From Candidatus Latescibacterota bacterium (GTDB lineage Bacteria; Latescibacterota; UBA2968; GCA-2709665): a stretch of 64,000 nt of DNA. Made by a program: the position numbers and the translations under genes. Every line of letters begins with the position of its first letter. Positions within the stretch are counted from its first letter, which is position 1. Below, one piece after another: positions 1-42,439 of this stretch. The notes below the pieces were generated by a model. The model was not told where the DNA came from. It saw only the letters and a list, made by a program, of their open reading frames with translations, and searched no databases. The DNA is taken from contig OZ244744.1 of assembly GCA_965219455.1 (NCBI GenBank), forward strand, positions 4,576,001-4,640,000, written 5' to 3'.

Positions 1-255
1 AACTGACCGATATCCGTCAGGTCCCACCGCTGATCCATGAGCTTATGCAAACTTAGTACTGTTTCAATTAAGTTTCTTGCGTTCAATTCCACCCGTTACG
101 GACGAAAAGCTTGAGGGGTAGGATTTGGGTGGAATGGATTTCTGATCTCCGGAAAGAGTGGGTGGACTCCGGCAGTGAAATCGGCTGACGTACATCAAGT
201 TAACTGACAGTGAGGTCATCCTTCTGTTTGTCCGGGGAACTGGAAATCGCACATC

Positions 256-345
256 ATATATCACAGCAATTCCCACTGCGCGCCATTCGGCGCTTGGCCA
301 AACGGCACAGCCCTTCGGGCTGTCGGGAATTGTCTAACGTTAACA
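256..345 (+). repeat. attC-like site (variant left core ATATATC)
   Basis: cACatcataTATC-ac-agcaattccc...gggaattg-tctaac-GTTAACA; internal cagcccttcgggctg hairpin. Confidence 0.65.
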
Positions 346-550
346 GAAAGCACGCGCCAAAGTCAAAACAGGCGGCCGTCCCGGCCGCCAGGAAAATCTT
401 TGAACCACTTCTCTTGCTTGATGGATTTGTTCTACAGCGAATGAGCTATACGGAGTTTTTTCGACCAGATTTTTCCGTAAAGGCAAGAGTTGGCGGCGAG
501 AAGACCAATATGAGTGCACAATAAGTGAAAGGCTACCCGGTGACGGTCAA

Positions 551-7306: not shown

Positions 7307-7567
7307 CACAGGGAGAGGTCGGTACAGACCGCGTTTGACCGGGCTTGCGAGAGAGCGAAAATTGTCCAGCGGATACCGACGCTACGGCATTCCTTTGCGA
7401 CACACCTGCTTGAACGCGGGACGGACCTGCGATATATCCAGGTGTTGCTCGGGCACGTAAGACCAAAGACCACACAGATCTATACTCGGGTGACGAATGG
7501 GGATCTCGCGAAAATCCAGAGCCCGCTGGATGCATTGATGGAAGAAAGGGAGGCAGTTTTTGATTAG
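7307..7567 (+). pseudogene. intI: Tyrosine recombinase (integron integrase-like) C-terminal remnant
   Basis: Not in the ORF track; reads [60 protein letters not shown]...IQSPLDAL; HxLRH has become PTLRH; N-terminus lost. Confidence 0.85.
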
Positions 7568-11469: not shown

Positions 11470-11595
11470 CCTGGGCAGAAGTTGGGTTGGGGCATTACAA
11501 TTCTTGGCTCCAATGTCCTTGGTGCTTCTATCTATTTCTTATTTCGAAGACCTAAGCGGATTCGGGAACGCAATCAGGAATCACTTGAGCCGTAG
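11470..11595 (+). pseudogene. PLDc_N-like protein, C-terminal half
   Basis: PGQKLGWGITILGSNVLGASIYFLFRRPKRIRE...; matches the KxxW...GAxIY..RRP pattern. Confidence 0.65.
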
Positions 11596-12149
11596 CGAAC
11601 ATATCGAGCCTCCCATACACTTCGTGCGTGGTGCTCCGAAGTGACGGCCTCGGACATCGACGTAGAAGATCTGTATTGTCGGGCCATGAGCGCCGTCGCA
11701 AAATAAAGCGCTCCTGGACCCACCTCAACACCACTACCCACACATTGGCCTGTGTCACACCGGTTGCTTGATTTTTACACCTATCGAAGTGGCGAAAAGG
11801 CGACGGAGAAAATTGAATATCCGGCGGAATGCACCTTCGTCTTGTCCAAAAGCTCACTTGCTAATGACTTGACTATGCCGAAGGCTGCGCCCCTACCCAG
11901 AGGGCATGCCGCTAAGTTCGGGATCACTTTGCTCGCGTGCCGCTTGGAGGGGCCACTGCCCTTGCTGGTCCTGACGTGAAGGTTTTGGAGAGATGTCGTG
12001 ATCTCTTCGGTATTGCCTAGGGCTAAACCATTTTTTCGAATCGGATCTCAGGTCATCCCAATCAGATGAGAGGAACCAAACCTATGTCGCACGCTGTATG
12101 TACGCGCCGATCTCCAGGACCGAGAGGGGCGCCACCCCGATGCGACTTC

Positions 12150-15270: not shown

Positions 15271-15447
15271 GAAAGCGGCGCAAGTGTTCCCAGCCACATT
15301 ACCCCAAAAAATCGCGCACAAAAGGCAACAACCACCTTATTTTGAAGTCTTCCACGGCGAATAAACTGTATCAAGTTTTTCGGCTACGAATGGAATATGC
15401 CGAACTTTCTCCGCAGAATCACAAGTCAGGCCGTGCGGAGGTCCACT

Positions 15448-16575
15448 ATGAAGTGGGAACTGCTGCATCCGGACCAGGAGCAAGCCGAGGATGTACCCTG
15501 TAGGCGGGCGGCCTTCGGCGGGATGTTGAGCTACAATGGATGCGTCTACCTGTTCGGGGGGATAAAAGTGATGTACGGCCGGCCGAAAGGGCCTGGAGAT
15601 CTTTCCGTCCAGGGCTCATTGAACGACCTGTGGCGCTACGACCCGGATCGAGGCCGGTGGACGCGGTTGGAAGACCACGATGGGCGCATCGGGTTCAGAC
15701 CGTCCGATACCAGACCGTGTACCCGGAAGCTCACGACCTGGCTGCCCGTGAACGGCAGGCTTTATCTTTTTGGCGGGTCCTCAGTGCGGGGCCCCGGCAA
15801 GAGGGAGATCAAGCTGAACGATCTCTGGGCCTACGATCCGAAGACAGCCTCGTGGGAGCTGTTAGAGCCCGACGACGGGCGGGCATCAGGAATAACGGCG
15901 GATGGGCATCGTCCCGCCGGTTCGGGCGGGATGGGGGCGGCCGTTCTGGGTGATTACCTGTATCTGATGGGGGGACATGGCGCGATGACGCACGCACAGC
16001 TGTGGACCTACAAGGCGCCGGCCGGGAAATGGGAGCACCTGGGGCCTGCATCGAATGGACGCAACGGTTGGCCGCCGAAACGATACTGTCCCGTGCTGGC
16101 CGGCTGGAACGGCAGGCTCTACCTGTGGGGCGGTCGGGACAGTCAGGGTCGAGCGCCGGAGTTCTACAACGATCTGTGGGAATACGATCCCGACGGAGGC
16201 GCCTGGACCTGCATTCAGGAGAACCGGTCGGATGATGTTGCACGGCCTTCCCCTCGGTACGGGCTGGGATACGCTGTGATCGGAGATCACCTGTATCTGT
16301 TCGGAGGATTTGCAGGAGGGGAAGGGGAGCACCCCCAGCTGAACGATCTGTGGCAGTACGATCTTCGTGCCGGCCGGTGGGACTGTCTATATCCACACAA
16401 CGGTGCGGAGGATTACTCTGCTGGCGCCGAACGTCCCGGTGTCAGGCGAATCCCCGTTATGACAGTGGGGGGCGAGTCCGTCTATCTCTTCGGGGGGCTG
16501 GATCTGGCTACCGGGCCGCACGGGGACGGGCCGCTGGCGGCGTACAACGATTTCTGGCACGGAACACCGGCCTGA
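15448..16575 (+). CDS. Kelch-repeat protein, copy 2
   Basis: Near-identical to 3268-4395. Confidence 0.9.
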   Translation: MKWELLHPDQEQAEDVPCRRAAFGGMLSYNGCVYLFGGIKVMYGRPKGPGDLSVQGSLNDLWRYDPDRGRWTRLEDHDGRIGFRPSDTRPCTRKLTTWLPVNGRLYLFGGSSVRGPGKREIKLNDLWAYDPKTASWELLEPDDGRASGITADGHRPAGSGGMGAAVLGDYLYLMGGHGAMTHAQLWTYKAPAGKWEHLGPASNGRNGWPPKRYCPVLAGWNGRLYLWGGRDSQGRAPEFYNDLWEYDPDGGAWTCIQENRSDDVARPSPRYGLGYAVIGDHLYLFGGFAGGEGEHPQLNDLWQYDLRAGRWDCLYPHNGAEDYSAGAERPGVRRIPVMTVGGESVYLFGGLDLATGPHGDGPLAAYNDFWHGTPA

Positions 16576-16694: not shown

Positions 16695-16860
16695 CTGGAA
16701 TTCATGCCGAGATCCCATTTCACGGTTGAGGAACTTGACACGTTCGAGGCCAAAGTTGAGCGAGGGAAGCCCTTACTCTCACCCCTGGCCTACAAAGCGA
16801 CCAAGGCAGGAATAGGATCGAAACGCCTTACCATAGCCTCGTAGGGAGAGAGGTGACTTC

Positions 16861-16941
16861 ACATAACACGACCGTGCCCGGCGACGGGCTGCGCCCTTCG
16901 CGCAAACGCTACGCGGTTCGGGCACGGCGAGAACGATATCT
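16861..16941 (+). repeat. attC-like site (right core GAT)
   Basis: ACATAACacgaccgtgcccg...gggcacggcgagaacGATATCT. Confidence 0.85.
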
Positions 16942-17032
16942 TGAAGAGACCAAAATCACAGTATCGGCCTGCAAATCAAGATAACAAGGTTTGTTATCAA
17001 ACACCCGAATTAACAACCGCATGGAGGACCCA

Positions 17033-18041: not shown

Positions 18042-19121
18042 TTGGGGCCATCACCGTTATGCGAAAGTGAGTTCGATTTGTTTAGAGCGGATCTCTTCCA
18101 GGCGCACCTGGAAAACTGGGAACTCATTCTGCAGGAGCGAACCGTTGAAGCCATCGAACGGATCGCGTCTGTTCCTGGCGTTGCGGGTGTGATTCTTGGG
18201 GGTAGCGTTGGGCGAGGAATGGCGTGGCCTATATCAGATATAGACCTCATCTACATTACTACCAGGGCGGCGGACAACAGTCTTCCAAAAGCAGTGGACG
18301 AGCTTGCGTTGTCCATCACAAGGGAGTGGGCTCGGGACACGTGGCCGACGTCTGTTGACGCAGGCCGACTCCATTTTACAGCCGATGAGGCAGACGACTT
18401 GATCAAAGGCAAGCGTCACTTGGATAAGCTGATGGCCAGTGAGAGGACTTTCCATGCGACCGACAAGAGCCACCTCGGTCAATCAGTTCACGCGTCTGAG
18501 GATTGCGATACTCCTGCATTTGTTGTGCTACTTTCCGATGGTCGATTTGACCCAACGGTTGTCCGGGCACGCCAAATCGAGCGAGTCAGACGTGTAACCA
18601 GGCTCGCCCATCGAGTGAAGTCACATCTGCAGGCAGGTCGTCTGATTGAGGCAGGGATCTCTATACAGGAACTCGCGCGTGTTATAATCCCATATCTGAA
18701 GGAAAGGTGGGGGCATGGAGATCGGTCCTTTGGAAGGGTTTTCACTCGTTTTTGCGTTCTGGCTCACGAGCACCAGGAAGAAGGAATTGCGAATCGCCTC
18801 ATTCGACTGTTCTCTCTTACGGCGGATGAGGTAGAAGCAAGGTACGCCAAGGCTCCCGCTAATGTTGAGGAGCGGCACATCACATCGTATCTATCCCGCC
18901 TGGCCGTGGGCGAGGAGATCACGGAGCTCGATGACAAACGCGATGTCCTGTATGCCTATACGTGGTATGCAGTTCGTACTGGTGAAACTGGTTCGTGGCT
19001 CCTCAATGAGGATCTGCACAAGTCTCAACTCAAGTTGTCACTGGATCAAACAGCATCCATATGGGCCGAGGTGGTCTCGAAGGAGCCGGATTGCGTATCC
19101 AGCGAACTCACCTTCGCATAA
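18042..19121 (+). CDS. Nucleotidyltransferase-domain protein
   Basis: GGSVGRGMAWPISDIDL (GS-x10-DxD); start uncertain; stop in the attC core. Confidence 0.75.
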   Translation: MGPSPLCESEFDLFRADLFQAHLENWELILQERTVEAIERIASVPGVAGVILGGSVGRGMAWPISDIDLIYITTRAADNSLPKAVDELALSITREWARDTWPTSVDAGRLHFTADEADDLIKGKRHLDKLMASERTFHATDKSHLGQSVHASEDCDTPAFVVLLSDGRFDPTVVRARQIERVRRVTRLAHRVKSHLQAGRLIEAGISIQELARVIIPYLKERWGHGDRSFGRVFTRFCVLAHEHQEEGIANRLIRLFSLTADEVEARYAKAPANVEERHITSYLSRLAVGEEITELDDKRDVLYAYTWYAVRTGETGSWLLNEDLHKSQLKLSLDQTASIWAEVVSKEPDCVSSELTFA

Positions 19122-19199
19122 CACGTCCGTGCCCGGCTTCGGGCCATTCGGCCATTCGCGCAACCGCTACGCGGTTCGGGCACGGAGAAAACGTCGCAC
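19116..19199 (+). repeat. attC-like site (right core GTC)
   Basis: GCATAACacgtccgtgcccg...gggcacggagaaaacGTCGCAC. Confidence 0.88.
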
Positions 19200-19256
19200 G
19201 AAAAATGAGGGCCTGGTCAATCAATTGGCCGGCACTGTTCACAGATAGCGTGAAAT

Positions 19257-20024
19257 ATGGGTTTAGACGAGCATGTTGCTACATGGAAAGGTGAAGAGGA
19301 ACAACCCTTCTTGGGATGGGACTTTTCCTATCTGGATGGCAGGATGTTAGAAGGGCAAGCTCCATGGTCGTATTCTTCACGGGCTGCCGAGCTCATGCGT
19401 CGATGCTCGTCTGTCATTGACCTGGGAACAGGTGATGGTGAGAGGTTCCTGAACTTACAGGAATTTTGGCCAAAAGTGGTTGTGGCAACGGAGGAATATG
19501 CACCTAACCTCAAGTTGGCAACAGAACGTCTCGTTCCATTGGGAGCGAAAGTTGTAGATGTTCGATTGACTGATTGCGATTCAGTGCCTCTTTTCGATCG
19601 CAAGTTTGATCTCGTTCTAAATCGCCATTCCGCCTTCAATCCCAATGAAGTTGCCCGTATTCTCACGCCTGGCGGTACATTCCTGACACAGCAAGTTCAC
19701 GGGTTATGGGCCTATGACTTACTGGCAGCGTTTGACGCTAAACCGCAATGGCCCGGATCCACCCTTGAAAGGTATGTGGCTCAATTGAGAACGACGGGCC
19801 TGACTATTCTCAATGCCGAAGACTGGTCTGGCCGGCTGGCTTTCGCCGACGTGGGCGCCGTGGTCTATTACTTGAAGGCTGTTCCCTGGCTGGTTCCTGG
19901 GTTTTCAGTCGAAACGCACGTGGAGTTCCTGTTAAGGCTGCAACGCCGTCTTGACAGCGGCGATGGGTTGGCTTTCGCAGCGAGGAAATTCCTGATTGAA
20001 GGGCAAAAGGAGGGGCCAGCTTGA
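19257..20024 (+). CDS. Class I SAM-dependent methyltransferase
   Basis: GWDFS, DLGTGDGE, FDLVLNRH, GGTFLTQQV. Confidence 0.9.
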   Translation: MGLDEHVATWKGEEEQPFLGWDFSYLDGRMLEGQAPWSYSSRAAELMRRCSSVIDLGTGDGERFLNLQEFWPKVVVATEEYAPNLKLATERLVPLGAKVVDVRLTDCDSVPLFDRKFDLVLNRHSAFNPNEVARILTPGGTFLTQQVHGLWAYDLLAAFDAKPQWPGSTLERYVAQLRTTGLTILNAEDWSGRLAFADVGAVVYYLKAVPWLVPGFSVETHVEFLLRLQRRLDSGDGLAFAARKFLIEGQKEGPA

Positions 20025-20058
20025 AAGGCGCCAAATGGTATCGATTGTGATCGTTTTC

Positions 20059-20171
20059 GTGTGACAGCGCGGTGTTGTGCTGCGGCGCGGAGCCTGTCCT
20101 GAGCCTGCCGAAGGGCGCCCTGGCCTTCGGCAACCCGCTTCGCTGGTTCGGCAATCGGTGAGACGTCACAC
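20059..20171 (+). repeat. attC-like site (GAC/GTC cores) containing a REP-like unit
   Basis: GTGTGAC...gagcctgtcctgagcctgccgaaggg...GTCACAC. Confidence 0.78.
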
Positions 20172-20240
20172 GCAAGCGGGGCCAGATATGGTAAGGATAT
20201 GAGTGGTGTGTCCTCCACCGCTTCTGACGGAGGTCTTTTT

Positions 20241-20867
20241 ATGCATGTATACGTAGTCTTCGCGCACCCTACGAGGAGGTCTTTTACCGGGGAGGTTTTG
20301 GACGAATTGTGTCGAGGATTCGACGATGGAGGACATTCATACGAGATCGGGGACTTGTATGAAATGGACTTCAAATGCGAAATGCACCTGGATGAGTACA
20401 CTCGCGAGATGAACGTCCAGGGTAATCGCTCCGCCCTCCCCATACCATCGGACGTGGAAGTCGAACACAGCAAGATCAGCAGGGCAGACGGCCTGGCCTT
20501 TGTTTTTCCCGTTTGGTGGAGCGACTGTCCGGCAAAGTTGAAGGGATGGTTCGACCGGGTTTGGGTCTGCGGATACGCCTACGAGTACCAGTTTGCCAGG
20601 GAGACCTATCCGTTTCCGCGACTCTCAGTCGAAAGGGCTCTCGTTCTCTGTCCGGTGGGTAATACTCTAGAGGGTCTGGAAGAGACTGGTATTGCTGAAG
20701 CCATGAGGCGGTTATACACACATGATCGCCTCCGCCCTGACGCGGGTGTGAAGCATTGTGAGTTCGCACTCCTTCCCGGAATGGCAGATCACTTTGCAAC
20801 ATCGAGCAACAGGGCAAGGAATCTTGAGACCGCGTATCAGTATGGCAGGAACTTCCTGATGAAGTGA
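20241..20867 (+). CDS. Flavodoxin-fold NAD(P)H dehydrogenase (quinone)
   Basis: VFAHP..SFT, FPVWWSDCPAKLKGWFDRV. Confidence 0.9.
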   Translation: MHVYVVFAHPTRRSFTGEVLDELCRGFDDGGHSYEIGDLYEMDFKCEMHLDEYTREMNVQGNRSALPIPSDVEVEHSKISRADGLAFVFPVWWSDCPAKLKGWFDRVWVCGYAYEYQFARETYPFPRLSVERALVLCPVGNTLEGLEETGIAEAMRRLYTHDRLRPDAGVKHCEFALLPGMADHFATSSNRARNLETAYQYGRNFLMK

Positions 20868-20960
20868 AGCAACGTGAAACGCCAGCCTCATTCGATCTGA
20901 GGATGTAGCTGGTTTGCGGCCTCGTCTTCCTGGAAAGCAGCACGATAGTCCCTGGCACGC

Positions 20961-21047
20961 GTGTATCAGCAGCACGTGCGGCTCGGGCCATCCCGGCCCT
21001 CACCCAACTTGCCTTCGGCAGGTTCGCAAGTGCGCGGAACGTAATCG
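20961..21047 (+). repeat. attC-like site (degenerate)
   Basis: GTGTATC...aacttgccttcggcaggttcgc...aacGTAATCG. Confidence 0.65.
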
Positions 21048-21056
21048 GCAATAGTT

Positions 21057-21941
21057 TTGGGGCAGGTCATGATTTATGGCTGCGACGGACTTGAATCGCG
21101 AATAGCGGACCTGACCGGACGAGAAGTGGACCGGCTGCTACCGGTTCAGGGAGGTTACACAAACGCCTGCCGAAGAATCGTGAAATTCCGGGACGGAAAC
21201 ACGGCATTTGCGAAGTGTGCTACGGACCGGCGCACCAGTGGGTGGCTATATTCTGAGATTTCGATCTATCGCCAGCTTTCCGGCGATTTCATGGCGGCCG
21301 TTTTAGCGTGGGATGAGGAGGAACCTCCGTTGCTTCTATTGGAAGATCTGAGCGGGAACCCATGGCCTCCGCCCTGGACTGCTCCTGGTGTCGATATGGT
21401 TCTCGACAGCCTGGCGATGATACATGAAAGCCAGGCGAGTGTGCCCGAATATCGCGAGATCTTCACTCATGGAGGTTGGCACGAAGTTGCGGCGCACCCG
21501 GAGGCCTTCCTGTCGATACGCGTTGCAAGTGAATCGTGGTTGACAACGTGTCTACCCACCCTCCTGGAGGCGCATGATAGCGTTGAACCTGGAGGCAAAG
21601 CGCTTGTCCATCTTGACGTGAGAAGCGATAACGTCTGCTTTCGTGCCGACCGGGCCGTTTTAATCGACTGGAACAACGCCTGCTCCGGCAATCCCGATCT
21701 CGACATTGCCTTCTGGCTGCCCAGCCTTCACCACGAGGGCGGGCCGCCTCCACAGGATATTCTTTCGGGCGCCGGTCACCTGGCGTCGTACGTTACGGGG
21801 TATTTGGCTTCGCGTGCGGGGTTGCCGGACCTGCCTCATACACCGTTGGTTCGCAATCTGCAGAAGGCGCAGCTGAATGCAGGGCTTCAGTGGACGGTTC
21901 AGGAACTTGGACTACCTGAACCGGACATGATGGGAAGATGA
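21057..21941 (+). CDS. APH/choline kinase-like phosphotransferase
   Basis: HLDVRSDN, LIDW; start may be ATG 21069. Confidence 0.85.
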   Translation: MGQVMIYGCDGLESRIADLTGREVDRLLPVQGGYTNACRRIVKFRDGNTAFAKCATDRRTSGWLYSEISIYRQLSGDFMAAVLAWDEEEPPLLLLEDLSGNPWPPPWTAPGVDMVLDSLAMIHESQASVPEYREIFTHGGWHEVAAHPEAFLSIRVASESWLTTCLPTLLEAHDSVEPGGKALVHLDVRSDNVCFRADRAVLIDWNNACSGNPDLDIAFWLPSLHHEGGPPPQDILSGAGHLASYVTGYLASRAGLPDLPHTPLVRNLQKAQLNAGLQWTVQELGLPEPDMMGR

Positions 21942-21977
21942 ATGTCTTTGGCGTGACCCGAACGGGAAGGAGGTAAC

Positions 21978-22754
21978 GTGGCTGGGAAAGATTTCGACAG
22001 GTTTGTCAATCTCGACTCCATCGCGGATGGCTTCTTCAGAGACGCCGTCGTGGGCCACGTCTCGGTGTATTGCGAAGTATTCGCAGAACGGCTTGTCTCA
22101 GTCTATGTGTGGGGAAGTGTTCACCGGAATGAAGCAGTACCCGAAGTTTCCGATCTTGACCTGCATCCGTTTATCCTGGACTCCGTCACCGATGCGGACA
22201 GGTTCCAGTTGCGGGATTCCGAGGCATCCCTTCAAGAGGAGTTCCTCGCGACTCATGGGCTTGTGACACCGCGATCTGTTGACAGGGTATCCGAGGTCGC
22301 AACGCGCCTCCGCTACGACGCCACGCTCGTCTGGGGAGAGGATCTGATTAAAGGGATGGAGATTCCACCCCCCGATCCCGTCGGCGCGTTCCGCGACCCA
22401 CGGGAGCTTGTTCGATATGCAGCGGGATTGCGGGAGGAGAACACAACCGACTTCTCCCTTCCTGACGAGCCCTCATTGCGCCTCCGTAAGCTCGGACGCC
22501 TGGCCGTGCTGGGTGGCGGGTATCTCCTCATGGCAAGCGGAGGCGGGTATTCCCTCAAGGGGTCGGAGGTTCTTCCGCTGCTGGAAGAGGTCTCTCCAGA
22601 TTGGCGAGGATTTCTGAGGAAAACTTCTGAAATCTATGTTCATCCCGTCCAACCGAGCGAGAGCGAGGTAGACGAATATCTGTCTCAACTGGTTGAGTGG
22701 ATGGAATGGATCGAAGATCAACTGCAGGATGAGTCAGCTGTGAGCCGCACCTGA
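21978..22754 (+). CDS. Nucleotidyltransferase-domain protein
   Basis: VYVWGSVHRNEAVPEVSDLDL; AGGAGG RBS. Confidence 0.8.
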   Translation: MAGKDFDRFVNLDSIADGFFRDAVVGHVSVYCEVFAERLVSVYVWGSVHRNEAVPEVSDLDLHPFILDSVTDADRFQLRDSEASLQEEFLATHGLVTPRSVDRVSEVATRLRYDATLVWGEDLIKGMEIPPPDPVGAFRDPRELVRYAAGLREENTTDFSLPDEPSLRLRKLGRLAVLGGGYLLMASGGGYSLKGSEVLPLLEEVSPDWRGFLRKTSEIYVHPVQPSESEVDEYLSQLVEWMEWIEDQLQDESAVSRT

Positions 22755-22820
22755 TCCGCGCCATCATCGCGAATGGGCGATCATTAACACTGAACGAAAG
22801 AGGCTGGCAAGGGCGACTTC

Positions 22821-22909
22821 CGCGAACAAGCAGGACTTCGGCTCCGGCGCATTCGAACGTCCGACCTGACTTGCTTGCGGAAAGTTCGCAGCCCGAGCGG
22901 GCGTTTTCG
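22821..22909 (+). repeat. attC-like site (degenerate)
   Basis: gACttccgcGAAC...gttcgcagcccg...GTTTTCG. Confidence 0.65.
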
Positions 22910-22940
22910 GAAATAGACTCATTCGAGGGAGTTACCAACG

Positions 22941-23708
22941 TTGAGCGAAGACGTCAGACGTTTTTACGATGACTTAGCTGCTGATTACCATCACGTTTAC
23001 GCAGAGTGGGAATCGGCAATCGAACGGCAGTCGTGTGTACTGGATCGGTTGATTCAACGTGAATCGTCAGTAGATGCATCGCTTGTCCTGGACTGTACAT
23101 GTGGAATAGGCACCCAGGCAATTGGCCTGGCGCGGCGAGGATACGAAGTCTTCGCGTCCGATCTTAGTCCGAAGGCGATTGCCAGGGCGAAATCAGAAGC
23201 AGCTAACCGGGGACTGACGGTTGAATTCGCCGTTGCCGATGTTCGTGAGGTGGAATGTGCCTTCGCCCACAAATTTGACGTCGTAATAAGTTGTGATAAC
23301 TCACTACCGCATCTCTTGACTGACGAAGACTTGACCCTCGCTCTCCGAAGCATTCGGCGCACACTTGCGGGTAATGGACTGTTTATTGCCAGTACTCGCG
23401 ATTACGATTGGCTGCTCGCGGAAAGACCGTCGTTTATGGGTGCGAACGTTCAGGATGTACCGGAGCGCGAGGTCATATCGTTTCAGATCTGGGACTGGTC
23501 GAAGGAATCAGATACCTATTTGATTCGGCTTTTCATAATGAGCCAGAAACCGAGTGGATGGCAAGTAAGAGAGGTTAGGACTCGCTACCGGGCGATTCGG
23601 CGCAAGGAGCTCACTCTAGCCCTGGAGTCCGCCGGATTCTCGAAAATCGCCTGGCATACACCTGAACAGTCTGGTTATTTTCAACCCGTTGTGACGGCGC
23701 ATGCCTAA
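22941..23708 (+). CDS. Class I SAM methyltransferase (glycine/sarcosine N-methyltransferase-like)
   Basis: LDCTCGIGTQ, FDVVISCDNSLPHL. Confidence 0.88.
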   Translation: MSEDVRRFYDDLAADYHHVYAEWESAIERQSCVLDRLIQRESSVDASLVLDCTCGIGTQAIGLARRGYEVFASDLSPKAIARAKSEAANRGLTVEFAVADVREVECAFAHKFDVVISCDNSLPHLLTDEDLTLALRSIRRTLAGNGLFIASTRDYDWLLAERPSFMGANVQDVPEREVISFQIWDWSKESDTYLIRLFIMSQKPSGWQVREVRTRYRAIRRKELTLALESAGFSKIAWHTPEQSGYFQPVVTAHA

Positions 23709-23721
23709 TAGAGTCTACTTC

Positions 23722-23810
23722 CGATAACAGCACGTTTTGCGCTACGGCGCTGATCGCGCCTTGGCCTTCGGCAACCGCTTCGCGGTTCCCAAACCGGCAT
23801 AACGTTACAC
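23722..23810 (+). repeat. attC-like site
   Basis: CGATAAC...ggccttcggcaaccgcttcgcggtt...aacGTTACAC. Confidence 0.85.
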
Positions 23811-23907
23811 GCAAGGGCCGTCTTTCCTGAATTGGAGCAAGACAATACCGTGATAACCCTGAAAAACCAACCTGCAACCCGTGACCGAGTGGGGGGAGCC
23901 CTAATCA

Positions 23908-24414
23908 ATGCCTCGTGACATTGGTCCAGGAACTCACCTGTTTTGGTCGGCGAAGTCCGGCCTTCATTCAGGAGCCGTTGTAAGACCTGGGGACTTCCAA
24001 ACCCGTTTAATGCGTCAGGTCCTGATCGAAGTCCAAACGGACTCTCTCGCGGTAACGGTTCCAGATGCCGCCGAGACAGGTCGTGTCATGATGGAACTCG
24101 CGTGGGAGACTGTTCGTCTACGGGAATTTCCCCATAGGCCAAGTCGGTTTGACTGCCTCTTTCTCTGGCCGGAAGCGAGTGCTGCCAGACGATTCGACTC
24201 CCATAGGGAAGCGTGCGAACTGTATGACGTCGAGATTCTTGAATGCTCACGCGCGTTCGCTGCTGATATGAACCTGATAAGTTACTTCGAAGAATTCGAA
24301 ACCCTTCAATCGATGTTCGAGCGGGCGCGACGATACTGGCAGAACGAGAGAAAGGACGAGCACGGGGAGATCCTGTTGGAAGGTACAATTCGGATTCAGG
24401 GGACAATCTTGTAG
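23908..24414 (+). CDS. DUF2441-like protein
   Basis: ELAWETVRLREFPHRPSRFDCLF...ARRYW...EILLEG. Confidence 0.65.
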   Translation: MPRDIGPGTHLFWSAKSGLHSGAVVRPGDFQTRLMRQVLIEVQTDSLAVTVPDAAETGRVMMELAWETVRLREFPHRPSRFDCLFLWPEASAARRFDSHREACELYDVEILECSRAFAADMNLISYFEEFETLQSMFERARRYWQNERKDEHGEILLEGTIRIQGTIL

Positions 24415-24587
24415 ATGAATACCGGGGCAGACTTGCTGTTCTCGAATTGCAGCGTGACCGCGCAGGGCAAGCGATACACATTGTGTGGGGCATCCCGGCC
24501 GGAAATACCTCACCCGCCGTTGTAGTGACGGCCTATCGCCCCAACAGACAGGATTGGGACGAGGGTTTCATCAGGAGGCGAACATGA
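24414..24587 (+). pseudogene. DUF4258-like toxin, C-terminal remnant
   Basis: LQRDRAGQAIHIVWGIPAGNTSPAVVVTAYRPNRQDW; no start; ATGA overlap with the partner. Confidence 0.7.
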
Positions 24588-24799
24588 CGAGCAGAGTGAC
24601 TACGAAACTCGTGCGCGCAGGGGAATATGCTGCGGAAGTGGAAGTGGAGTTGATCGATGGTGACGCGGGATGGCCGCCCAATCTTTCGGTCAGAGATGCT
24701 GAAAAGCTGGATGATGTTCGTGAGGCTCTACGGATCTGTAACCTGGAGCAGGCGGCTCAGATGGCTCGGGTATTCCGGCTGACCCCGATTGAGGCGTGA
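24584..24799 (+). CDS. Putative antitoxin partner of the DUF4258-like toxin
   Basis: KLVRAGEYAAEVEVELI...DAEKLDDVREALR; AGGAGG RBS. Confidence 0.7.
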   Translation: MTSRVTTKLVRAGEYAAEVEVELIDGDAGWPPNLSVRDAEKLDDVREALRICNLEQAAQMARVFRLTPIEA

Positions 24800-24860
24800 A
24801 GCACCTCAACTTCCCGAAGGACATTGTCCATCGCCCGGACATTAAAAGGAACCATATAGC

Positions 24861-25566
24861 GTGAAAGTGGCTCTTGGTGTCCCCCAAGTAAGACTAAACC
24901 GGCAGGATAATCTCTCCGGCTTGATGCAGATGACTGAGGATGCCGCAGACGTCAATGCAGAGATGATTGTTTTTTCCGAAGCGGCGATTACAGGATTTGT
25001 AAATACCGGGGACCCCGATTATGATCTGTCTCTTGGTCAATCGATTCCCGGAGTTGCTTCAGAGGCACTTTGCCAGCTTGCTGCCAGATGCCGAATTTGG
25101 GTGGCAACAGGTTTCTTTGAACGAGTTGAGGATCGCCTCTACACCGATTGGAACCGCTGCCTTTTTGCTTTGTGGCGATCTATTCAATAATACCTGCTTT
25201 TCTCGGTTGAAGGCACTAAATCCGGACTGGTTGTTGTATCCTATGGCTCGCGGGTTTGATGAAGATGTTGCAGATACGGCTATGTGGCATAGACAGGAAA
25301 AGTACCTTTATGCCCGGCGAGCGCGAGAGGCCGGCGTCAATATGATGTTGGTCAATCAGTTGACAGACGACGAAATGGGAGGTTTCTTCGGCGCTGCTTT
25401 ATTTGTCTCAAGATCAGGTGAGATTCTGGGTGAATTTCCTTTAAAAGAAGAAGGCATGTTGCTCATCGATATACCAGAATGTACCCAACAGCACGCACGG
25501 CGGGGCGCGTCAGGTCCGCAGCACGGGATTGTCCCACCTGCCCCAGGAGAGCCGCGCTGCCCATAA
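24861..25566 (+). pseudogene. Carbon-nitrogen hydrolase (nitrilase family) with an internal deletion/frameshift
   Basis: IVFSEA in one frame and FLLCGD in another; the catalytic Lys segment is missing near 25140. Confidence 0.75.
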
Positions 25567-25640
25567 TCTCTTTTTCAGCCCGTTTTCGGCGGACATAGGG
25601 CGTCGGCCACACGCCTCGTGGCCAGGAATAGCAGGTCGTG

Positions 25641-27303
25641 ATGACCAAATCTCTCCTGAATCACCCCACTCTCGAGGTCAATCGCAAACAGGCCAAAGCT
25701 CTCGTTCGGGATTTCGCCGCCGGCATCCCCGAAAGCCATCGCTTGTGTCCCGGAGCAGCTTCCCGGACGTGTGAAACCCATCACGGGACGCGACGCTCAG
25801 TTCGTGATCGCACGGGAGTCCGGTTATCACGGATGGACAGCGTAGAGGTCGGCTACTATGGGCAAATCTGCTGAATTGAAGTGGGCAGTAGAAGCGGCCG
25901 AGAAGGCCATCCACGCCAACGATACCGCTCGCCTGGACAGCCTCCTTGCGGAGCACCCGGGTCTGCTCACGTGGCGCAATCCGGACGACGAGCGCCCCGT
26001 TCTGCTTTACGCTACCACCTCCTACGCCAACTTTCCCGGCGCCGAGAATGAAGTTGTCTTCAACCGGCCCGACTGTGCCCGCCTGTTGATTGAAGCTGGC
26101 GCGGTTATGCATCCCCGGGTCTACTTGAGGGCAATCGACACCGGTGCACACGGCATGCTGGCGCTGTTTGACGAATACGGCGTACTGCCGGAAAACCTGC
26201 GTACGTTGACCGCGAGGGGCGATCTCGATAGGGTGCGGGGATGTTTCGACCCTGCCGGCGTCCTGCGCAACGTCGGTCGCCCGGAGGCGGAACTGCGCAC
26301 CGGGTACACCGGCGCCGAGGCGGACTGGCCCGATCCCGCGGATGATCGGTTGATCGTCGCCGACGCGTTTCTCTACGCCTGCCGGCTGGGTCATCGCGAC
26401 ATCGCGCATTTACTGATGGATCGTTGCCTTCAGCTCGACGACAATCTTCGGACGCGCGTGGCGGCATGGCAGGGGAAAACGGCCTTTGTCGATTACCTGC
26501 TGGAGAAGCGGCCAGAGGGGGGAAGACAGGCGCGTTCCTACCGGGAGGCGAACGACGACCCCGGTCTGATCTGGCGTCGGGCCGTGGAACTGCGCCTGCT
26601 CGCCGCCCTGGACGAGGGCAACGCGGAATCCATCCGCGATCTGCTCGCGACCGAATCTTTCCTCCTGGGCCCCCGCTATCTCGAGACCCAGGAAATGATG
26701 CTTGCAGCCGCGGCCTGCTCCGAGGGAAAACTGCCGGTAATCGAAGCCGTGATCACGGCCGGCGCGGCCATCGCCACGGTGGATGAACCGCCGGTGTCTC
26801 GCGCCGTCCTCTATGCTCTCGAATACGGGAATGCCGACTACGTTCCGGCCTTGTCGCAAATCTGGCCCGTGCCTGACGATCTGCCCCACGCTGCCGGTCT
26901 GGGCAACCTGGAGGCAGTCGAAAAGAGGTTCGCCGACGGCTATCCGCAGTTGGGCGATCCATCCTTGTATGCCTGCCCACCCGGGGAATCACCATTGGCC
27001 AGCGTTCAGGAGATCGTCGATAGGGCTTTGGCCTGGGCGGTGCAGAACGGGAACTACCAGATCGCGGACTATCTCCTGGATCACGGCGCGAATATCAACA
27101 CGAGATGGAGTACCCACGAGCCGGCAAGCATCCTGCACGAATGCGTCTTCGCCGGCCGCATGGAACAGGTCGTGTATCTCGTTCGCAAAGGGATCGACGT
27201 GACCCTCAGGGATCATCGACACGATGCCACCCCGGAAGACTGGGCACGGCACGCGGGACAAAAGGAAGTCGCCGAATATCTGGCGGGATTGAAAGGTACG
27301 TGA
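25641..27303 (+). pseudogene. Ankyrin-repeat protein; N-terminus disrupted (intact ORF 25858-27303)
   Basis: PTLEVNRKQAK...DAQFVIARESGYHGW N-terminus broken by a frameshift and a TAG; ALAWAVQNG, LLDHGANIN, ILHEC ankyrin motifs. Confidence 0.75.
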
Positions 27304-27460
27304 TCTGCGGTTTCGTTTGCCCTGTTTAACAAGCTCATCCGGCGGACTGTGGAGAATCCCGGCTGTTTCGACCAGCCTTGACGGGGGTGAAGCTGAGTCA
27401 AATTCAAATTACATGCGCCGGCATCGGGAAATAACCTTCATGTTGGGCAATTCTGCATAC

Positions 27461-27527
27461 GGATCTCGCAAGAACCCAAAGGCACCTTGATGTAATAATG
27501 AATGAGAATGAAGCAGAATGCGATTAA
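27461..27527 (+). pseudogene. Second, highly eroded integrase 3' end
   Basis: DLARTQRHLDVIMNENEAECD* aligns codon for codon with [21 protein letters not shown] at 7502-7567. Confidence 0.7.
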
Positions 27528-27546
27528 GGACGGTAGCTGATTAATT

Positions 27547-27659
27547 GCATTCCTGAACATCTTCGGCTACAAGCTCCAACGTAACATGCTTTCGAACGTT
27601 CGCAGATCCTCCGACCAGATACGAATTACCGTTGCTGTTTTGTAATACCGTAGTTATAG
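27547..27659 (+). promoter_or_regulatory. attI-like site 2
   Basis: gcattcctgaacat...ggctacaagct...cgaacgttcgcagatc...taataccgtaGTTATAG; homologous to 7584-7697. Confidence 0.75.
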
Positions 27660-27669
27660 GAAATGCCAA

Positions 27670-28335
27670 ATGACCCCAAGCGACGATGCTTCTTACGGCG
27701 ATTCCTCGGTGTGGGATAGCCGCTTCAAACGCGAAGGTGATTTGGATTGGGGAGGGTTCTGGATAGATCCTTTTGTGGACACTTTAGCCGAGAGCAATTG
27801 CAGGAAGGTTCTGGATCTGGGATGTGGGTCGGGGAACGACGTACGTCGTCTTGCAAATTTAAACCTCCAAGTCACGGGTCTGGATTTTTCGAAAATAGCG
27901 CTAGACATCGCCCGTTCGCAGCGGAATCCGAGAGCCGGTTTTGTGAGGGCTGATATGGCTAGGGGGCTTCCGTTTCTCAAACGGTGCTTCGATGCCGTCT
28001 TTTCGAACGTGGCGCTTCACATGTTCGACGACATGATGACGAGGGCTGTCATTCAGGAGGTAAAGCGCATTCTCCGCCCCTCAGGGATTTTTGTCTTTCA
28101 CGTGAACTCAGTTGATGACCGTGAGCTACGAGCACGCCGGAGGCAGGTATCCGAGAAACTGGGGCCGAACCGGGTGCGTGAAGCGGATGGCCAGACAGTT
28201 CACTTTTTCTCTCAATCCGAGCTTGAAGGTCACTTTCAAGAGTGGACGCATCTTGAGATCGAGCACCTATTCGTACCTGATGGAATAACAGGAAAGCCTT
28301 TCAAAGCCGTCTGGCGAGGATGTGCGCGGAATTGA
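27670..28335 (+). CDS. Class I SAM-dependent methyltransferase
   Basis: VLDLGCGSG, GLDFS, FDAVFS. Confidence 0.9.
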   Translation: MTPSDDASYGDSSVWDSRFKREGDLDWGGFWIDPFVDTLAESNCRKVLDLGCGSGNDVRRLANLNLQVTGLDFSKIALDIARSQRNPRAGFVRADMARGLPFLKRCFDAVFSNVALHMFDDMMTRAVIQEVKRILRPSGIFVFHVNSVDDRELRARRRQVSEKLGPNRVREADGQTVHFFSQSELEGHFQEWTHLEIEHLFVPDGITGKPFKAVWRGCARN

Positions 28336-28369
28336 GATTGCTGTGGCAAGGAAAAAGGTTTAGCACTAG

Positions 28370-28452
28370 CTATAACGCGTCCGTGCCCGGCTGCGGGACA
28401 TTCGGCCCTTCGCGCAACCACCGTGCGGATCGGGCACGGCGAGACGTTAGCT
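28370..28452 (+). repeat. attC-like site (main family)
   Basis: CTATAACgcgtccgtgcccg...cgggcacggcgagacGTTAGCT. Confidence 0.88.
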
Positions 28453-28519
28453 GAGAATAGCCGCGAAGACATTCTCTTCCTCTTTTTCATTGCAGGCAAT
28501 GCGTGAATCGGAGACCAGT

Positions 28520-29572
28520 ATGATATTTACCAGACGTATATGGCCCATGTTGGCGGTATTATTTATGGCATCGGACGCCAAGGCCAATGGCTTCGCCATG
28601 GGTCATCGCCATGTTCCAATAGTGGTGGACGTAGACGTAACCCTTCACACCGGGGAAACCGTGCGCTTGCGAGCTGGTCAGCCCATCTACGTTAACGACG
28701 AATTCCGGACGTATTATCGCGAACAACCTGTCGAGATCCCTTCAAGTGCCCTGCCGGCATCACTCGATGGATACCGTCTTTATAGACAAAGGAGCTTGAA
28801 ACGGAGCGCCAGCCTACTTTCGTTGGAGGCCTCAGAGGAGGCAAATCCGATTGCGAGGACATGGCTATACCTCTTGGCCGGGCACTCATATGTAATAGGT
28901 GGCGGCTTTACCGACAAGAGAGCAAATGAGGCTTACCAAAGGGCAACCGAGCCGCCATTGAACGTGTACAGTCCATACGGTCTATTCTTCAACGCAAAGC
29001 TTCTCGCAGGCAATAGGGACTATCGAAGGGCGAAGCGGGTGCTGCGGCGAATCAGGGAGAAGTTTGGTGAAGACGCAATTGATGCAGTTGGATCGACAAA
29101 GAGTGTCATGCTATTCACGACCTATACTCATGGATCTGCCATAACCGAGGGATATTTTAGGGGATTTCGCGGTCTCAGTTGGTCGATCCAAATTTTGGAT
29201 AGACTGCTTAAGGCACAGCAGAAATATCAAATGGGCGATCAAAGGGTTGAGTCTGAGGATTTGTGGAAGTACTTCCCTCCGAAAGCATCCTTGGGAGTCC
29301 CAAAGCCTGATGAGGCGCAGGAGTTGCTCCGACGTATTGTCACAGAATACCATGCGTCGGACGTGGCACCCGTGGCCTACTTCCGGCTCCTGACTTACTA
29401 CGAGGCTCCTTATGAATTCAATGGGGACGACATTGCCAGATACCGATTCGAATTTTGCCAAATGACGAAGTTCCTATCGAAGTATCCAGACAGCAAAATA
29501 AGCGATGATGCGCGGAAGAGACTGGCCAAGGCGGGGAAGTTCTTGAAGGACAGAGGAATCCTGCCAAGGTAG
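28520..29572 (+). CDS. Exported hypothetical protein with TPR-like helices
   Basis: Signal-peptide-like N-terminus; FLSKYPDSKISDDAR-type motif. Confidence 0.65.
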   Translation: MIFTRRIWPMLAVLFMASDAKANGFAMGHRHVPIVVDVDVTLHTGETVRLRAGQPIYVNDEFRTYYREQPVEIPSSALPASLDGYRLYRQRSLKRSASLLSLEASEEANPIARTWLYLLAGHSYVIGGGFTDKRANEAYQRATEPPLNVYSPYGLFFNAKLLAGNRDYRRAKRVLRRIREKFGEDAIDAVGSTKSVMLFTTYTHGSAITEGYFRGFRGLSWSIQILDRLLKAQQKYQMGDQRVESEDLWKYFPPKASLGVPKPDEAQELLRRIVTEYHASDVAPVAYFRLLTYYEAPYEFNGDDIARYRFEFCQMTKFLSKYPDSKISDDARKRLAKAGKFLKDRGILPR

Positions 29573-29601
29573 TCGATACGTATCACCCGGGCGGCAACTC
29601 C

Positions 29602-29687
29602 AGCTTTCACGACGGGCTTCGGCTCCGGCGTATTCGCGCCTTCGCCAATCCTGCTTCGCAGGTCCGCGGCCTGCGAGGACGATATAT
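29602..29687 (+). repeat. attC-like site (right core GAT)
   Basis: AGCTTTCacgacgggcttcggctccgg...cctgcttcgcagg...GATATAT. Confidence 0.7.
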
Positions 29688-29722
29688 AAAATGGGAAGAG
29701 AGAATCAACATAACTTGAGGTA

Positions 29723-30625
29723 GTGACGATGAATGACCAGTTCAGGCTAAACTGCGGGCTGTTACGCTTGTTTGACGAGTTTGACTTGGTTCCAGATGAG
29801 TTGGCGCCTGGCTTCCAATATGAACTCTCACATCCTGAACTCGAGCGTCTGCGCGAAGCATATAGACTTGATCAGGTTGCAGGAGGTGGAGACGAATGGT
29901 CCAGGGTCCTGAACCTAATGCAGTGGATGTCAGAAGGCGTATGCCACAGAGGCGACATTACCAAATCGTTGCCCGAAGTCTGTAAATCCCTGCCCATGAA
30001 CGCTTCGGAACTTCTCAGATATTCGTTCGGCAAAGGTAAGGACTATGGCATCAACTGCTACATGCTGTCTATCGTGCTGACAGAGGCCTGCCTATCTCTG
30101 GGATTGCAGAGCCGAATAGTGTCTCTGAATCCATTGAATCCATACGACTATGACAATCATTTGGTTACGGTGGTTTGGTGTACTTCTCGCTCGAAGTGGG
30201 TGATGGTCGACCCCTCGTACAATGCATATCTATGTGACTCTGAAGGACTGATCCTGAGCCCATGGGAGACCAGGGACCGACTATGCCGACACAAGACCAT
30301 CTTCTGCAACGACGAGCTGAGTTACAATGGAGCCAGGTACAACCCAGAAGACTATCTGACGTACATGGCGAAGAACTTGCTCTACATGCACTCCCCATGT
30401 TTTAACGGATTCGGAAGCGTTACTTCAGGTAAGACGTGGCTCACGCTGGCCCCGAAGCACCTGGACGTTTGCAAGCGAGAGACATACAACATGAAGTGGC
30501 GTGAGGAGGCCGAGAGCGGGAACTGGGAGTACGAAGAACTTCGTAGTAGTCTCGAGAAGCGAAGGCTGGCGGGAGGCCACGCGTACACGTCATCTGTCGC
30601 GTCTTTTGCGCAAGCGCCGAACTGA
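29723..30625 (+). CDS. Transglutaminase-like domain protein
   Basis: GINCYMLS, DNHLVTVVW, KWVMVDPSYN (Cys-His-Asp). Confidence 0.82.
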   Translation: MTMNDQFRLNCGLLRLFDEFDLVPDELAPGFQYELSHPELERLREAYRLDQVAGGGDEWSRVLNLMQWMSEGVCHRGDITKSLPEVCKSLPMNASELLRYSFGKGKDYGINCYMLSIVLTEACLSLGLQSRIVSLNPLNPYDYDNHLVTVVWCTSRSKWVMVDPSYNAYLCDSEGLILSPWETRDRLCRHKTIFCNDELSYNGARYNPEDYLTYMAKNLLYMHSPCFNGFGSVTSGKTWLTLAPKHLDVCKRETYNMKWREEAESGNWEYEELRSSLEKRRLAGGHAYTSSVASFAQAPN

Positions 30626-30669
30626 GCAATACACCGGCAGAGAATTGCCCGAGCGAAAATTCCCACTTT

Positions 30670-30763
30670 ATATATCACGTCCATTTGCGCTGCACGGCAT
30701 ACGGTGCCTGGCGCTTGCGCGCACCCCGCATGCACGGGGTCGCAAATGGTGAGGACTTTAGAG
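30670..30763 (+). repeat. attC-like site (left core ATC)
   Basis: ATATATCacgtccatttgcg...cgcaaatgg-tgaggac-TTTAGAG. Confidence 0.75.
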
Positions 30764-30800
30764 GCCATGCGAAGCAGGCCGATTAAAACGGAAGTTTCAG

Positions 30801-31379
30801 ATGAGGATTTCAGTCGTCAGCAGCAGTCTCAATGCCGATAGTCTCAGCAGGGTGCTTGCCGCCATGTGTCGGACCGCTCTGGAGGACATGGGCATTTCCG
30901 TTGATTTCATCGATCTTCGACAACTTGATCCACCGAATTTCGACGACGACGAGATCTATTCATCCGAGGTGTACCAATCGTGCCACAGGATCATTGCGGC
31001 ATCTGATGCGGTAATATTGGCCAGTCCGGTATACAACTGGGCGTGCTGCTCTGAGCTCAAGAAATTTGTCGAGTATATAGGCTCTACGCCACCAAACGGA
31101 TCGCTCAGAGGAGCATTCTATGACAAGGTCGTGATGTTTGTCAATTCGGGTGGCTTGCCGCACAGCTATATGGCGTTTGCGTCGCTGGCAACGTCCCTTA
31201 TGCTGGATTTCAAGTGCATTGTCAGCCCGTATAATGTGTATGCCCACGACGGTAATTGGACTGAGGGAGGCGAACTCGACGACGCAACTACGGCCAGGTT
31301 AAAGAAGTCACTTTCTGTACTGATTGAGCTTGCGGAGCGACTCAAGAGCCGATCATATGGGTCGAACTGGGAAATCTGA
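30801..31379 (+). CDS. NADPH-dependent FMN reductase
   Basis: SSSLNADSLS, SDAVILASPVYNW...ELKK. Confidence 0.88.
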   Translation: MRISVVSSSLNADSLSRVLAAMCRTALEDMGISVDFIDLRQLDPPNFDDDEIYSSEVYQSCHRIIAASDAVILASPVYNWACCSELKKFVEYIGSTPPNGSLRGAFYDKVVMFVNSGGLPHSYMAFASLATSLMLDFKCIVSPYNVYAHDGNWTEGGELDDATTARLKKSLSVLIELAERLKSRSYGSNWEI

Positions 31380-41470: not shown

Positions 41471-42319
41471 ATGACTGAACGAATCAACTGCGATGACTTC
41501 GCCGAGCAGTATTCAGCGATGGCGTCAGATATGGATGCTGGCGGAGATCTTGACCAACGCGATCAGGCAATTCGTACGGAAGCCGATGGACTGCTTGGGA
41601 CAAAAGGCTTGAGAGGTCTACTCAATGACTACGGTACTCCTCATGTCACGGGTAGTTACCCTTAATTCGACAAAAACAGCAACGCGGCGCCGCGACGAAA
41701 CCTTCCGAAACGGGCCGAAAAGGTCGTCCGGAAGGACATTTTTTCCGTTCACGTCCAGTGACCTGAAGTATCCTGGAAATCCGACGTCAAATCGCCTTTA
41801 TTCACTTGCGTATATTCGAATTAAAGTCCCCGAAAAATGTCGAATCAAGGTTACGCTCTGCACTTGATGACCTGGAGGGATCTCGATATCTATCTGGAAC
41901 AGCCAAATCTATCTGTCGAATCGTTCTTTCGTTTGGGAGGCAGGATCGCATCCTGCCTGGCTCCGGTAAGAATGAGTTTTCGCAATGAACGTATTAACCG
42001 GACACCAAACCTACCGTTGGGTCTTTATTGGGGTGTCTATCTCGGGGACGAAAGGAAAGGCGCCTGGAAGATTGATATCTGGGCCGTTGATTCTGAAGAA
42101 TGCGAGCGCCAGCTTCAGTTTAATCGACGACTTGCAGCGGCCCTGACACCTTCATTTCGTAGTAAGATTCTCAGCATCAAACAGGCCTGTTGGAAGGATC
42201 CTGGCTATCGGAAGACGTATACGAGTCAAGACATATACCGTGCGGTGATAGAACAAGGCATTGAGGATGTTGATGGCTTCAAAGACCTCATGGAGGGCAG
42301 GGGAGTGAGCGTCTGTTAA
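41471..42319 (+). pseudogene. Nucleotidyltransferase-like gene interrupted by a MITE
   Basis: PHVTGSY | ALHLMTWRDLDIY rejoins in frame when 41660-41854 is removed. Confidence 0.8.
41660..41850. mobile_element. MITE with IS1380-like ends and TTAC duplication
   Basis: ccttaattcgaca / tgtcgaatcaagg; TTAC on both sides. Confidence 0.82.
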
Positions 42320-42400
42320 CACCATGGCGGCTGCGGGCTTTTCGGTTCTTCGCACAACCGATACGACGGCACATACTCATAGGTTCCGAGAAAGTCACGC
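42314..42400 (+). repeat. Degenerate attC-like site
   Basis: TGTTAAC overlapping the stop; ggctgcgggc...cgcacaaccg; GTCACGC. Confidence 0.55.
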
Positions 42401-42439
42401 GTCACTTGCATTCCGATAATTCATCGCCTCAGGTTTTGC

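Follow-up and report, generated by a model that had tools for sequence, protein, structure and literature searches.

Paired and unpaired core-triplet variants in a very large gene cassette array of a Candidatus Latescibacterota bacterium

The DNA analysed here, called the window, is a stretch of 64,000 nucleotides from a Candidatus Latescibacterota genome (G000; contig OZ244744.1, C1:4576001-4640000, forward strand), and the whole of it lies within a plus-strand gene cassette array of more than 120 kb. The window is packed with plus-strand open reading frames (ORFs), each followed by an imperfect palindrome of 80–120 nt that runs from ..YAAC to GTTR... The outer triplets of these palindromes, AAC in the left core box (R'') and GTT in the right core box (R'), are the subject of this study; the original prediction had pointed to complementary changes in them at the two ends of single cassettes. 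An RNAalifold consensus of six closely similar copies gave a shared 22-pair hairpin in which 7 pairs had changes on both sides. A covariance model (R1) was made from six window copies and rebuilt from 20 window sites (R2), and each model, or both together, located at least 30 plus-strand attC sites in the window. With filters off and E-values up to 5, R2 had 39 matches in the window, 35 of them full-length plus-strand sites. Over the 5.84-Mb contig, 68 attC sites were retained after filtering, of which 62 lay between 4,550,736 and 4,676,886, with smaller groups at 4.735 Mb and 2.54 Mb. Several sites could be read as having a one-base bulge in L''. The R''-L''...L'-R' hairpin, the AAC and GTT boxes, and the complementarity of a cassette's start to its own R'' were all present, which identifies these elements as integron attC sites and gene cassettes. 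Several other approaches were set aside: nhmmer profiles of whole attCs or their right halves caught only about half of the sites, a sliding minimum-free-energy scan gave 124 candidates that were mostly coding sequence and was abandoned, and RNAalifold gave no structure from a mixed MAFFT alignment and a poor one for a second attC type. Rfam had zero matches within the window.

An intact integron integrase was absent from the 5.84-Mb contig. The best match to TIGR02249 scored 88.9 bits against a cut-off of 265, and the matches at this level were XerC/D-type-looking genes elsewhere on the contig. The array does not represent a complete integron, for which an integrase with the IntI-specific insertion, next to an attI site, would be needed, and contains only Xer-like gene fragments. 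By the definition that the consulted part of Cury et al. 2016 (PMC4889954) gives for clusters of attC sites lacking integrases (CALIN), namely at least two attC sites with no integrase nearby, the array is a very large CALIN.

All cassettes and attC sites described below lie on the plus strand, and their scores are those of R2. In integrons, crossover takes place between the G and the TT of R', and the next six bases belong to the downstream cassette; a linear cassette thus opens with the final six bases of its own R' and closes with R''-L''...L'-G. Because the start of a cassette is the distal half of its own R' box, the start and the left core of the same cassette pair with each other as a short stem in the excised circle and in the folded single strand, the form recognised by the integrase. 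The paired changes about 1 kb apart that had been described are therefore real as pairs, but that framing missed a standard point of cassette anatomy: once the cassette is circular or single-stranded, the two sites form opposite arms of a single hairpin stem and are not independent of each other.

Two cassettes of the window carry paired variants. Cassette A (19194..20165) follows an attC at 19113..19202 (93.6 bits, E 6.5e-25) with R'' GCATAAC at 19116-19122 and R' GTCGCAC at 19193-19199; the G of this R' belongs to the upstream cassette, and TCGCAC represents the first six bases of cassette A. Its ORF (19257-20024) encodes a methyltransferase domain (Pfam Methyltransf_11/25), and its attC (20056..20174; 26.8 bits, E 3.3e-5) has R'' GTGTGAC at 20059-20065, with the triplet GAC at 20063-20065, and R' GTCACAC at 20165-20171. 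The G|TC start is thus paired with GAC, with three of four flank bases complementary (7/8 over eight bases). The two strings given for the ends of this cassette, GTCGCACGAAAA at 19193-19204 and its near-complement TTTTCGTGTGAC at 20054-20065 (one flank mismatch), are placed correctly; however, TTTTCGTGTGAC, which contains the R'' box, marks the start of the attC, and the cassette itself runs on for about another 100 nt, to the G of 20165. Cassette C (29682..30757) encodes a 300-aa protein without a Pfam match (29723-30625) and starts G|AT, with GATATAT at 29681-29687 facing ATATATC at 30670-30676 (triplet ATC at 30674-30676) in its own attC (30667..30766; 50.1 bits), the R' of which reads TTTAGAG (30757-30763). 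This cassette is kept in relatives, and a second, more distant copy is present in G000 at 4565449-4566486.

Adjacent cassettes show the unpaired condition. Cassette B (20166..21041), with a flavodoxin-like ORF (20199-20867), starts G|TCACAC and has R'' GTGTATC (20961-20967) in its attC (20958-21050; 49.1 bits), so that the flank matches 4/4 and the triplet, ATC, is not complementary. Cassette D starts with the canonical GTTAGCT (28446-28452), the R' of the attC at 28367..28455 (77.1 bits), and its own attC (29599..29690; 71.5 bits) has R'' AGCTTTC (29602-29608) and R' GATATAT (29681-29687); again the flank matches 4/4, with TTC standing against the canonical start. Four further sites had been singled out. 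The attC at 253..348 (56.6 bits) has R'' ATATATC (256-262) and a canonical R' GTTAACA (339-345); its cassette start, which lies upstream of the window, was not found. The attC at 16858..16944 (77 bits) has a canonical R'' ACATAAC and R' GATATCT (16935-16941), for which no matching ..AGATATC R'' was found downstream. R' GTCACGC occurs at 42394-42400 in the attC at 42311..42403 (41.2 bits) and again at 43475-43481 in a weak attC (43417-43484; 15.7 bits), the R'' of which, GCCTTAC, is unpaired with the preceding GTCACGC. Both direct reading and the covariance-model table bear out every coordinate quoted in the original prediction, including GTC at 20165, 42394, and 43475. A fuzzy search for partners by 8-nt flank was swamped by chance matches and re-found just 19193/20054, 29681/30666, and 20165/20957. 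The first base of R' is altered or lost at two boundaries, namely TTT at 30757 (G to T) and ..GGAC|TTGCAC at 41422, where the G seems to be deleted; by analogy with the IntI1 data cited below, these two junctions should be blocked unless the partner shares the first base.

To extend the comparison, attC sites were collected from G000 (E up to 5, filters off) and eleven other genomes of the genus (E up to 0.05, default filters). Of 268 matches, eight with gapped or truncated ends and five on the minority strand were removed, which left 255 sites. The pairing rule was tested without the triplet, using only the four bases beyond it (R' bases 4-7) and the R'' flank of the next attC. The two flanks were exact complements in 62 of 243 consecutive pairs in the 12 genomes, and three of four bases matched in a further 46; the arms within one chromosomal attC matched 4/4 in just 5 of 255 sites. 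In the proximal part of the array, the full 7-mers of R' and own R'' matched 7/7 for most cassettes. When the bottom strand of the cassette C attC was joined to the cassette's own start, it folded with an outer stem of at least eight pairs, a stem that is missing from the bottom-strand fold of the hybrid attC site on the chromosome.

The triplet, which had been called supposedly invariant, is far from invariant in this lineage, in which GTT/AAC is only the majority state. Among the 255 sites, the R' triplet was GTT in 167, GTC in 35, GTA in 11, and GAT in 10, and the R'' triplet was AAC in 183, GAC in 17, ATC in 13, AAT in 9, and TAC in 7. Variability in R' was 4.7% at G1, 11.0% at T2, and 24.7% at T3, and in R'' 14.9% at A1', 12.5% at A2', and 6.3% at C3'; changes at the G1/C3' pair were thus two to five times rarer than those at the other two positions. 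Preservation also followed a gradient along the array. In its proximal 26 kb (G000:C1:4550736-4576348), AAC was found in 15 and GTT in 14 of 16 sites, and the non-canonical triplets were those of a GAT/ATC pair and one weak match reading GTC. In the window, AAC was found in 21 and GTT in 23 of 35 sites, and several attCs were truncated or lacked R'' (e.g., 5495-5580 and 55048-55114).

Paired and unpaired substitutions were then counted over cassettes with at least three of four flank bases matching, a filter that 108 consecutive pairs passed and 135 of the 243 did not. The 108 validated pairs of start and own R'' comprised 77 canonical pairs, six complementary variants (GAT/ATC four times and GTC/GAC twice), and 25 unpaired variants, of which 12 were changed only at the start, nine only in R'', and four at both ends in a non-complementary way. 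As orthologous cassettes recur across genomes, the cassettes were clustered with BLAST into 64 families with 80 distinct states, although one 13-member cluster chained via multi-cassette spans remained; clustering by end strings over-merged the cassettes and was replaced. The 80 family states comprised 52 canonical, four paired, and 24 unpaired ones, and the four paired states compare with an expected 0.80 (P = 0.004; 100,000 shuffles of the R'' states among families). In a strict set (flank 4/4, cassette of 3 kb or less), 3 of 49 states were paired, with 0.47 expected (P = 0.007). In the control, in which the arms of the same chromosomal attC were compared, 3 of 255 sites had paired variants, with 3.76 expected (P = 0.75). 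Paired substitutions therefore exceed chance, modestly, and the excess, small but real, is restricted to arms that come together only once the cassette is excised. Most triplet variants in the array are uncompensated decay. The mismatches showed no excess of G·T wobbles on the bottom strand (eight on the bottom versus six on the top strand).

Homologues of cassette C are found at 85–95% identity in many genomes of the genus. GAT...ATC is retained in both G000 copies, which are paralogues, and in G013, G012, G006, and G004; elsewhere, G001 has GAT with a decayed R'', G003 has a GTT start and has lost the attC, and the copy in G014 is decayed. The R'' boxes of the attCs upstream of these homologues differ (AGCTTTC, GTGTAAC, GTATAAC, TTGCAAC, and two unrelated types), and the GAT/ATC cassette is preceded by at least four different attCs and followed by three different starts. 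This cassette has been placed among different neighbours while carrying G|AT and has therefore moved as such. Cassette A also has changing neighbours across genomes, and its family is more mixed: GTC/GAC is found in G000, G002, and two copies in G004, GTC/AAC in G006, GTT/GAC in G008, GTA/GAC in G001, and GTA/AAC in G012, with a decayed copy in G014. Such single-change states are expected if mutation proceeds stepwise and is now and then compensated, and they do not fit the copying of one arm from the other. The tree of the family is star-like, with a single supported fork that joins G001 and G012 (100/100), which share GTA and differ at R''; the order of the changes is therefore unreadable. 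An unrelated cassette in G008 is also GTC/GAC, with a 4/4 flank. Close homologues were found in metagenome-assembled genomes (MAGs) labelled Gemmatimonadota and Candidatus Latescibacterota. No R2-type attC was found beside more distant homologues of the cassette A protein (60–71% amino acid identity), which came from other groups and from MAGs labelled Chloroflexota, in particular Anaerolineae, Anaerolineales, Dehalococcoidia, and Thermoflexales.

The same paired triplets occur in independently assembled relatives, which shows that they are not assembly errors. Over 19156-20326 and 28218-29958, contigs of metagenome run X15, possibly the source sample, are identical to the window, and contigs of runs X1 and X19, from other studies, cover the variant sites with no difference there among the matches listed. 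Contigs of runs X19 and X20, from two other studies, match the upstream attC as far as 19194 and then diverge into sequences beginning TAG...; divergence also occurs at 20150 and 23775. The same attC is therefore joined to other cassettes in other populations, and divergence at this point would be expected from cassette exchange at G|T. Some further runs, in which a small fraction of the sampled words occurs, are labelled sponge, coral, or unspecified metagenome, and no habitat is claimed on that basis.

As to the enzyme, just one recombinase is linked to the arrays of this genus, a Xer-like tyrosine recombinase of 333 aa. It is intact in G013, about 5 kb past the array (locus L045 1171-2172, minus strand), and lacks the IntI-specific insertion when aligned with a standard integron integrase of the same bacterial family; it scores 214 bits with TIGR02249 (cut-off 265) and 218.6 bits with a XerA-type model (cut-off 220). 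G000 has only three broken copies. One lies inside the array in the window (7313..7561, plus strand) and comprises only the C-terminal part (tblastn: residues 248-332 of the relative's protein, 85% identity), and the others are at C1:4556559-4557161 and C1:4547348-4547655. The copy at 4556559-4557161 lacks residues 150-277, and because it sits within a cassette with a perfect 7/7 R'/R'' pair, the recombinase gene may be cargo and not the enzyme of the array.

Paired triplets of this kind have been studied in the laboratory. According to the consulted part of Frumerie et al. 2010 (PMC2811028), the triplets of attCaadA7 and attCVCRd were mutated together with the complementary position and tested with IntI1. 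GAT, GTC, and GTA attC sites with the complementary change recombined with wild-type attI1 at about the wild-type frequency, GAT rather better, and the frequency fell from 2.2e-3 to 6e-6 for a non-complementary GTT/ATC site. Only the first base had to be identical in both partner sites. All integrons characterised by 2010 had GTT, according to the authors. The variability by position described above echoes these data, with G1/C3' kept and positions 2 and 3 loose, and the complementary variants that apparently go on moving agree with them as well.

Building on the cassette anatomy, the own-cassette pairing rule, the paired excess, and the conservation and changing neighbours of the variants observed here, we consider it probable, at roughly three in four, that the paired variants are stem-preserving states of mobile cassettes in a CALIN-like array and that the unpaired variants reflect decay without an integrase. 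A change at position 2 or 3 of the triplet (T2, T3, or their partners A2' and A1') would break the stem of the cassette that carries it, and a second, complementary change would restore it. Cassettes that kept a stem would stay mobile and mismatched ones would be left behind; GAT/ATC and GTC/GAC would then be stem-preserving states, and the many unpaired variants would have decayed after loss of the integrase. Selection for mobility may have kept the pairs, as the published IntI1 assays suggest by analogy. The suggestion that the recombinase accepts other paired triplets is supported by those experiments and by the GAT/ATC and GTC/GAC cassettes found beside differing neighbours.

Several observations weigh against this reading. 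Unpaired variants outnumber paired ones (25 versus 6 of 108 cassettes and 24 versus 4 of 80 family states), so any constraint to pair is not a strong one here. With only three or four independent paired families, the statistics depend on a small number of events; E cut-offs and filters also differed between G000 and its relatives, and missed attCs took 135 of the 243 consecutive pairs from the count. No GAT/ATC relative with both ends readable has GTT/AAC; two-step compensation is thus not demonstrated for this family, which may have had that stem from its origin. Of the nine copies of the cassette A family in the genus, five are mismatched or decayed (GTC/AAC, GTT/GAC, GTA/GAC, GTA/AAC, and TTC/GAA). 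Moreover, both cassette A boundaries in G000 are GTC, with no cognate integrase at hand, and in the consulted part of PMC2811028, IntI1 recombined GTC x GTC partners 150-fold worse and left a GTC site uncleaved in vitro. The simplest competing explanation is that the whole array is dead and decays neutrally, its complementary pairs being coincidental or due to the shared ancestry of duplicated cassettes. The lack of an intact intI (88.9 versus 265 bits for TIGR02249), the low preservation in the window (AAC 21/35, GTT 23/35), the 25 unpaired among 31 variant own-pairs, and the paralogy of the two GAT/ATC cassettes of G000 would all suit it. Against it stand the excess at the family level (P = 0.004–0.007), the retention of GAT/ATC in six genomes and differing contexts at 85–95% overall identity, and the two- to fivefold better preservation of G1/C3' relative to positions 2 and 3, a contrast not expected from uniform decay, and we regard it as unlikely.

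Inverted repeats are known substrates for template-switch mutation, and one arm could have been copied from the other by template switching at the quasi-palindrome during replication or by mismatch repair in the folded cassette, as had also been proposed. Nothing speaks directly for such concerted change, although the GAT/ATC family shows no canonical or intermediate state with both ends intact, which would fit copying. Arms that lie close together on the chromosome belong to different cassettes and show no excess of pairs (3/255 versus 3.76 expected), the cassette A family has single-change states that conversion would skip, and the sisters G001 and G012 (100/100) share GTA yet differ at R''. 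Copying thus seems very improbable, and neither the counts nor the mismatched states of the GTC/GAC family lend it support, although conversion inside the excised circle may have occurred. It is just as hard to believe that a lineage-specific recombinase with an altered or relaxed reading of positions 2 and 3 makes GAT, GTC, and GTA fully normal sites. T3 does vary at 24.7% and GTC stands at 35 of 255 R' boxes, and the only array-linked recombinase is the 333-aa Xer-like protein without the integron-integrase insertion; but that protein is broken in G000, one copy is inside a cassette and may be cargo, the well-kept proximal array is almost wholly GTT/AAC, and a bacterium of the same family carries a standard integron integrase (464.5 bits). 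A bolder reading is doubtful: in this uncultured lineage GAT/ATC and GTC/GAC cassettes would have moved, and perhaps still move, as normal substrates, with only the G/C pair truly constrained in nature, and their enzyme might differ from classical integrases, the array-linked Xer-like recombinase without the IntI insertion being a candidate.

The cargo in the region 19193..30676 includes methyltransferases, a flavodoxin-like protein, an APH-family phosphotransferase, an ankyrin-repeat protein, and several ORFs without a Pfam match. The phosphotransferase (Pfam PF01636, 33.9 bits) is encoded by the cassette at 21057-21941. A cassette-sized segment is duplicated 12.2 kb apart (3168-4395 and 15348-16575), with the first 300 nt 98% identical; its internal repeats have a period of about 50 aa, and it may encode a beta-propeller-like repeat protein. 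Two stretches without an attC match, 6474-12146 (5.7 kb) and 43485-52494 (9 kb), may be insertions or fused cassettes. The first contains the recombinase fragment and two large ORFs (548 and 458 aa) without a Pfam match, and the second a 456-aa ORF on the minus strand. A 69-nt repeat with 99% identity occurs twice, 24 kb apart (7013-7081 and 31201-31269), outside attC sites.

Overall, the pairing is a real feature, and it is mostly explained by cassette anatomy together with the published tolerance of the integrase, and reveals no new mechanism. The mildly new element is that GAT/ATC and GTC/GAC cassettes occur naturally in an uncultured lineage, where they are conserved and apparently mobile; we found no report of natural non-GTT attC pairs in the literature searched, part of which consisted of primer tables only, and do not claim that none exist. 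These cassettes lend natural, evolutionary support to the laboratory result that recombination depends on a complementary attC stem and an identical first base rather than on GTT itself. In practical terms, attC finders and boundary callers that insist on GTT/AAC would overlook or wrongly place roughly one site in three in such lineages, and pairing of R' with R'' of the same cassette offers a simple test that separates live-looking from decayed cassettes.

When compared with known systems, these sites resemble integron attC sites in their covarying imperfect hairpin, their AAC...GTT boxes, the co-orientation of ORF and attC, and a cassette start that complements its own R''. They are unlike them in that about a third of the sites in the genus are non-canonical and that some complementary pairs (GAT/ATC and GTC/GAC) are kept across genomes. 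As in the CALINs of Cury et al. 2016, many attC sites occur without an intact intI, and here fragments of recombinase pseudogenes lie in or near the array; the difference is one of size, with 68 sites here, whereas most CALINs described in the consulted part of that paper (PMC4889954) have fewer than six and the largest has 114. The genomic insertion sites of IntI1, IntI2, and IntI3 share 5'-GWT-3', according to the consulted part of a preprint (10.1101/2022.09.11.507474), so that GAT is accepted beside GTT there too, but those sites are double-stranded genomic targets and not folded attCs. The closest parallel is with the mutants of Frumerie et al., which, in the portion of PMC2811028 consulted, have the same GAT, GTC, and GTA triplets matched by a complementary R'', likewise require the attC to be complementary within itself, and give G1 the same special role. 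Those mutants were laboratory constructs assayed with a class 1 integrase, whereas the variants described here are natural and come from an uncultured lineage known from its sequence alone.

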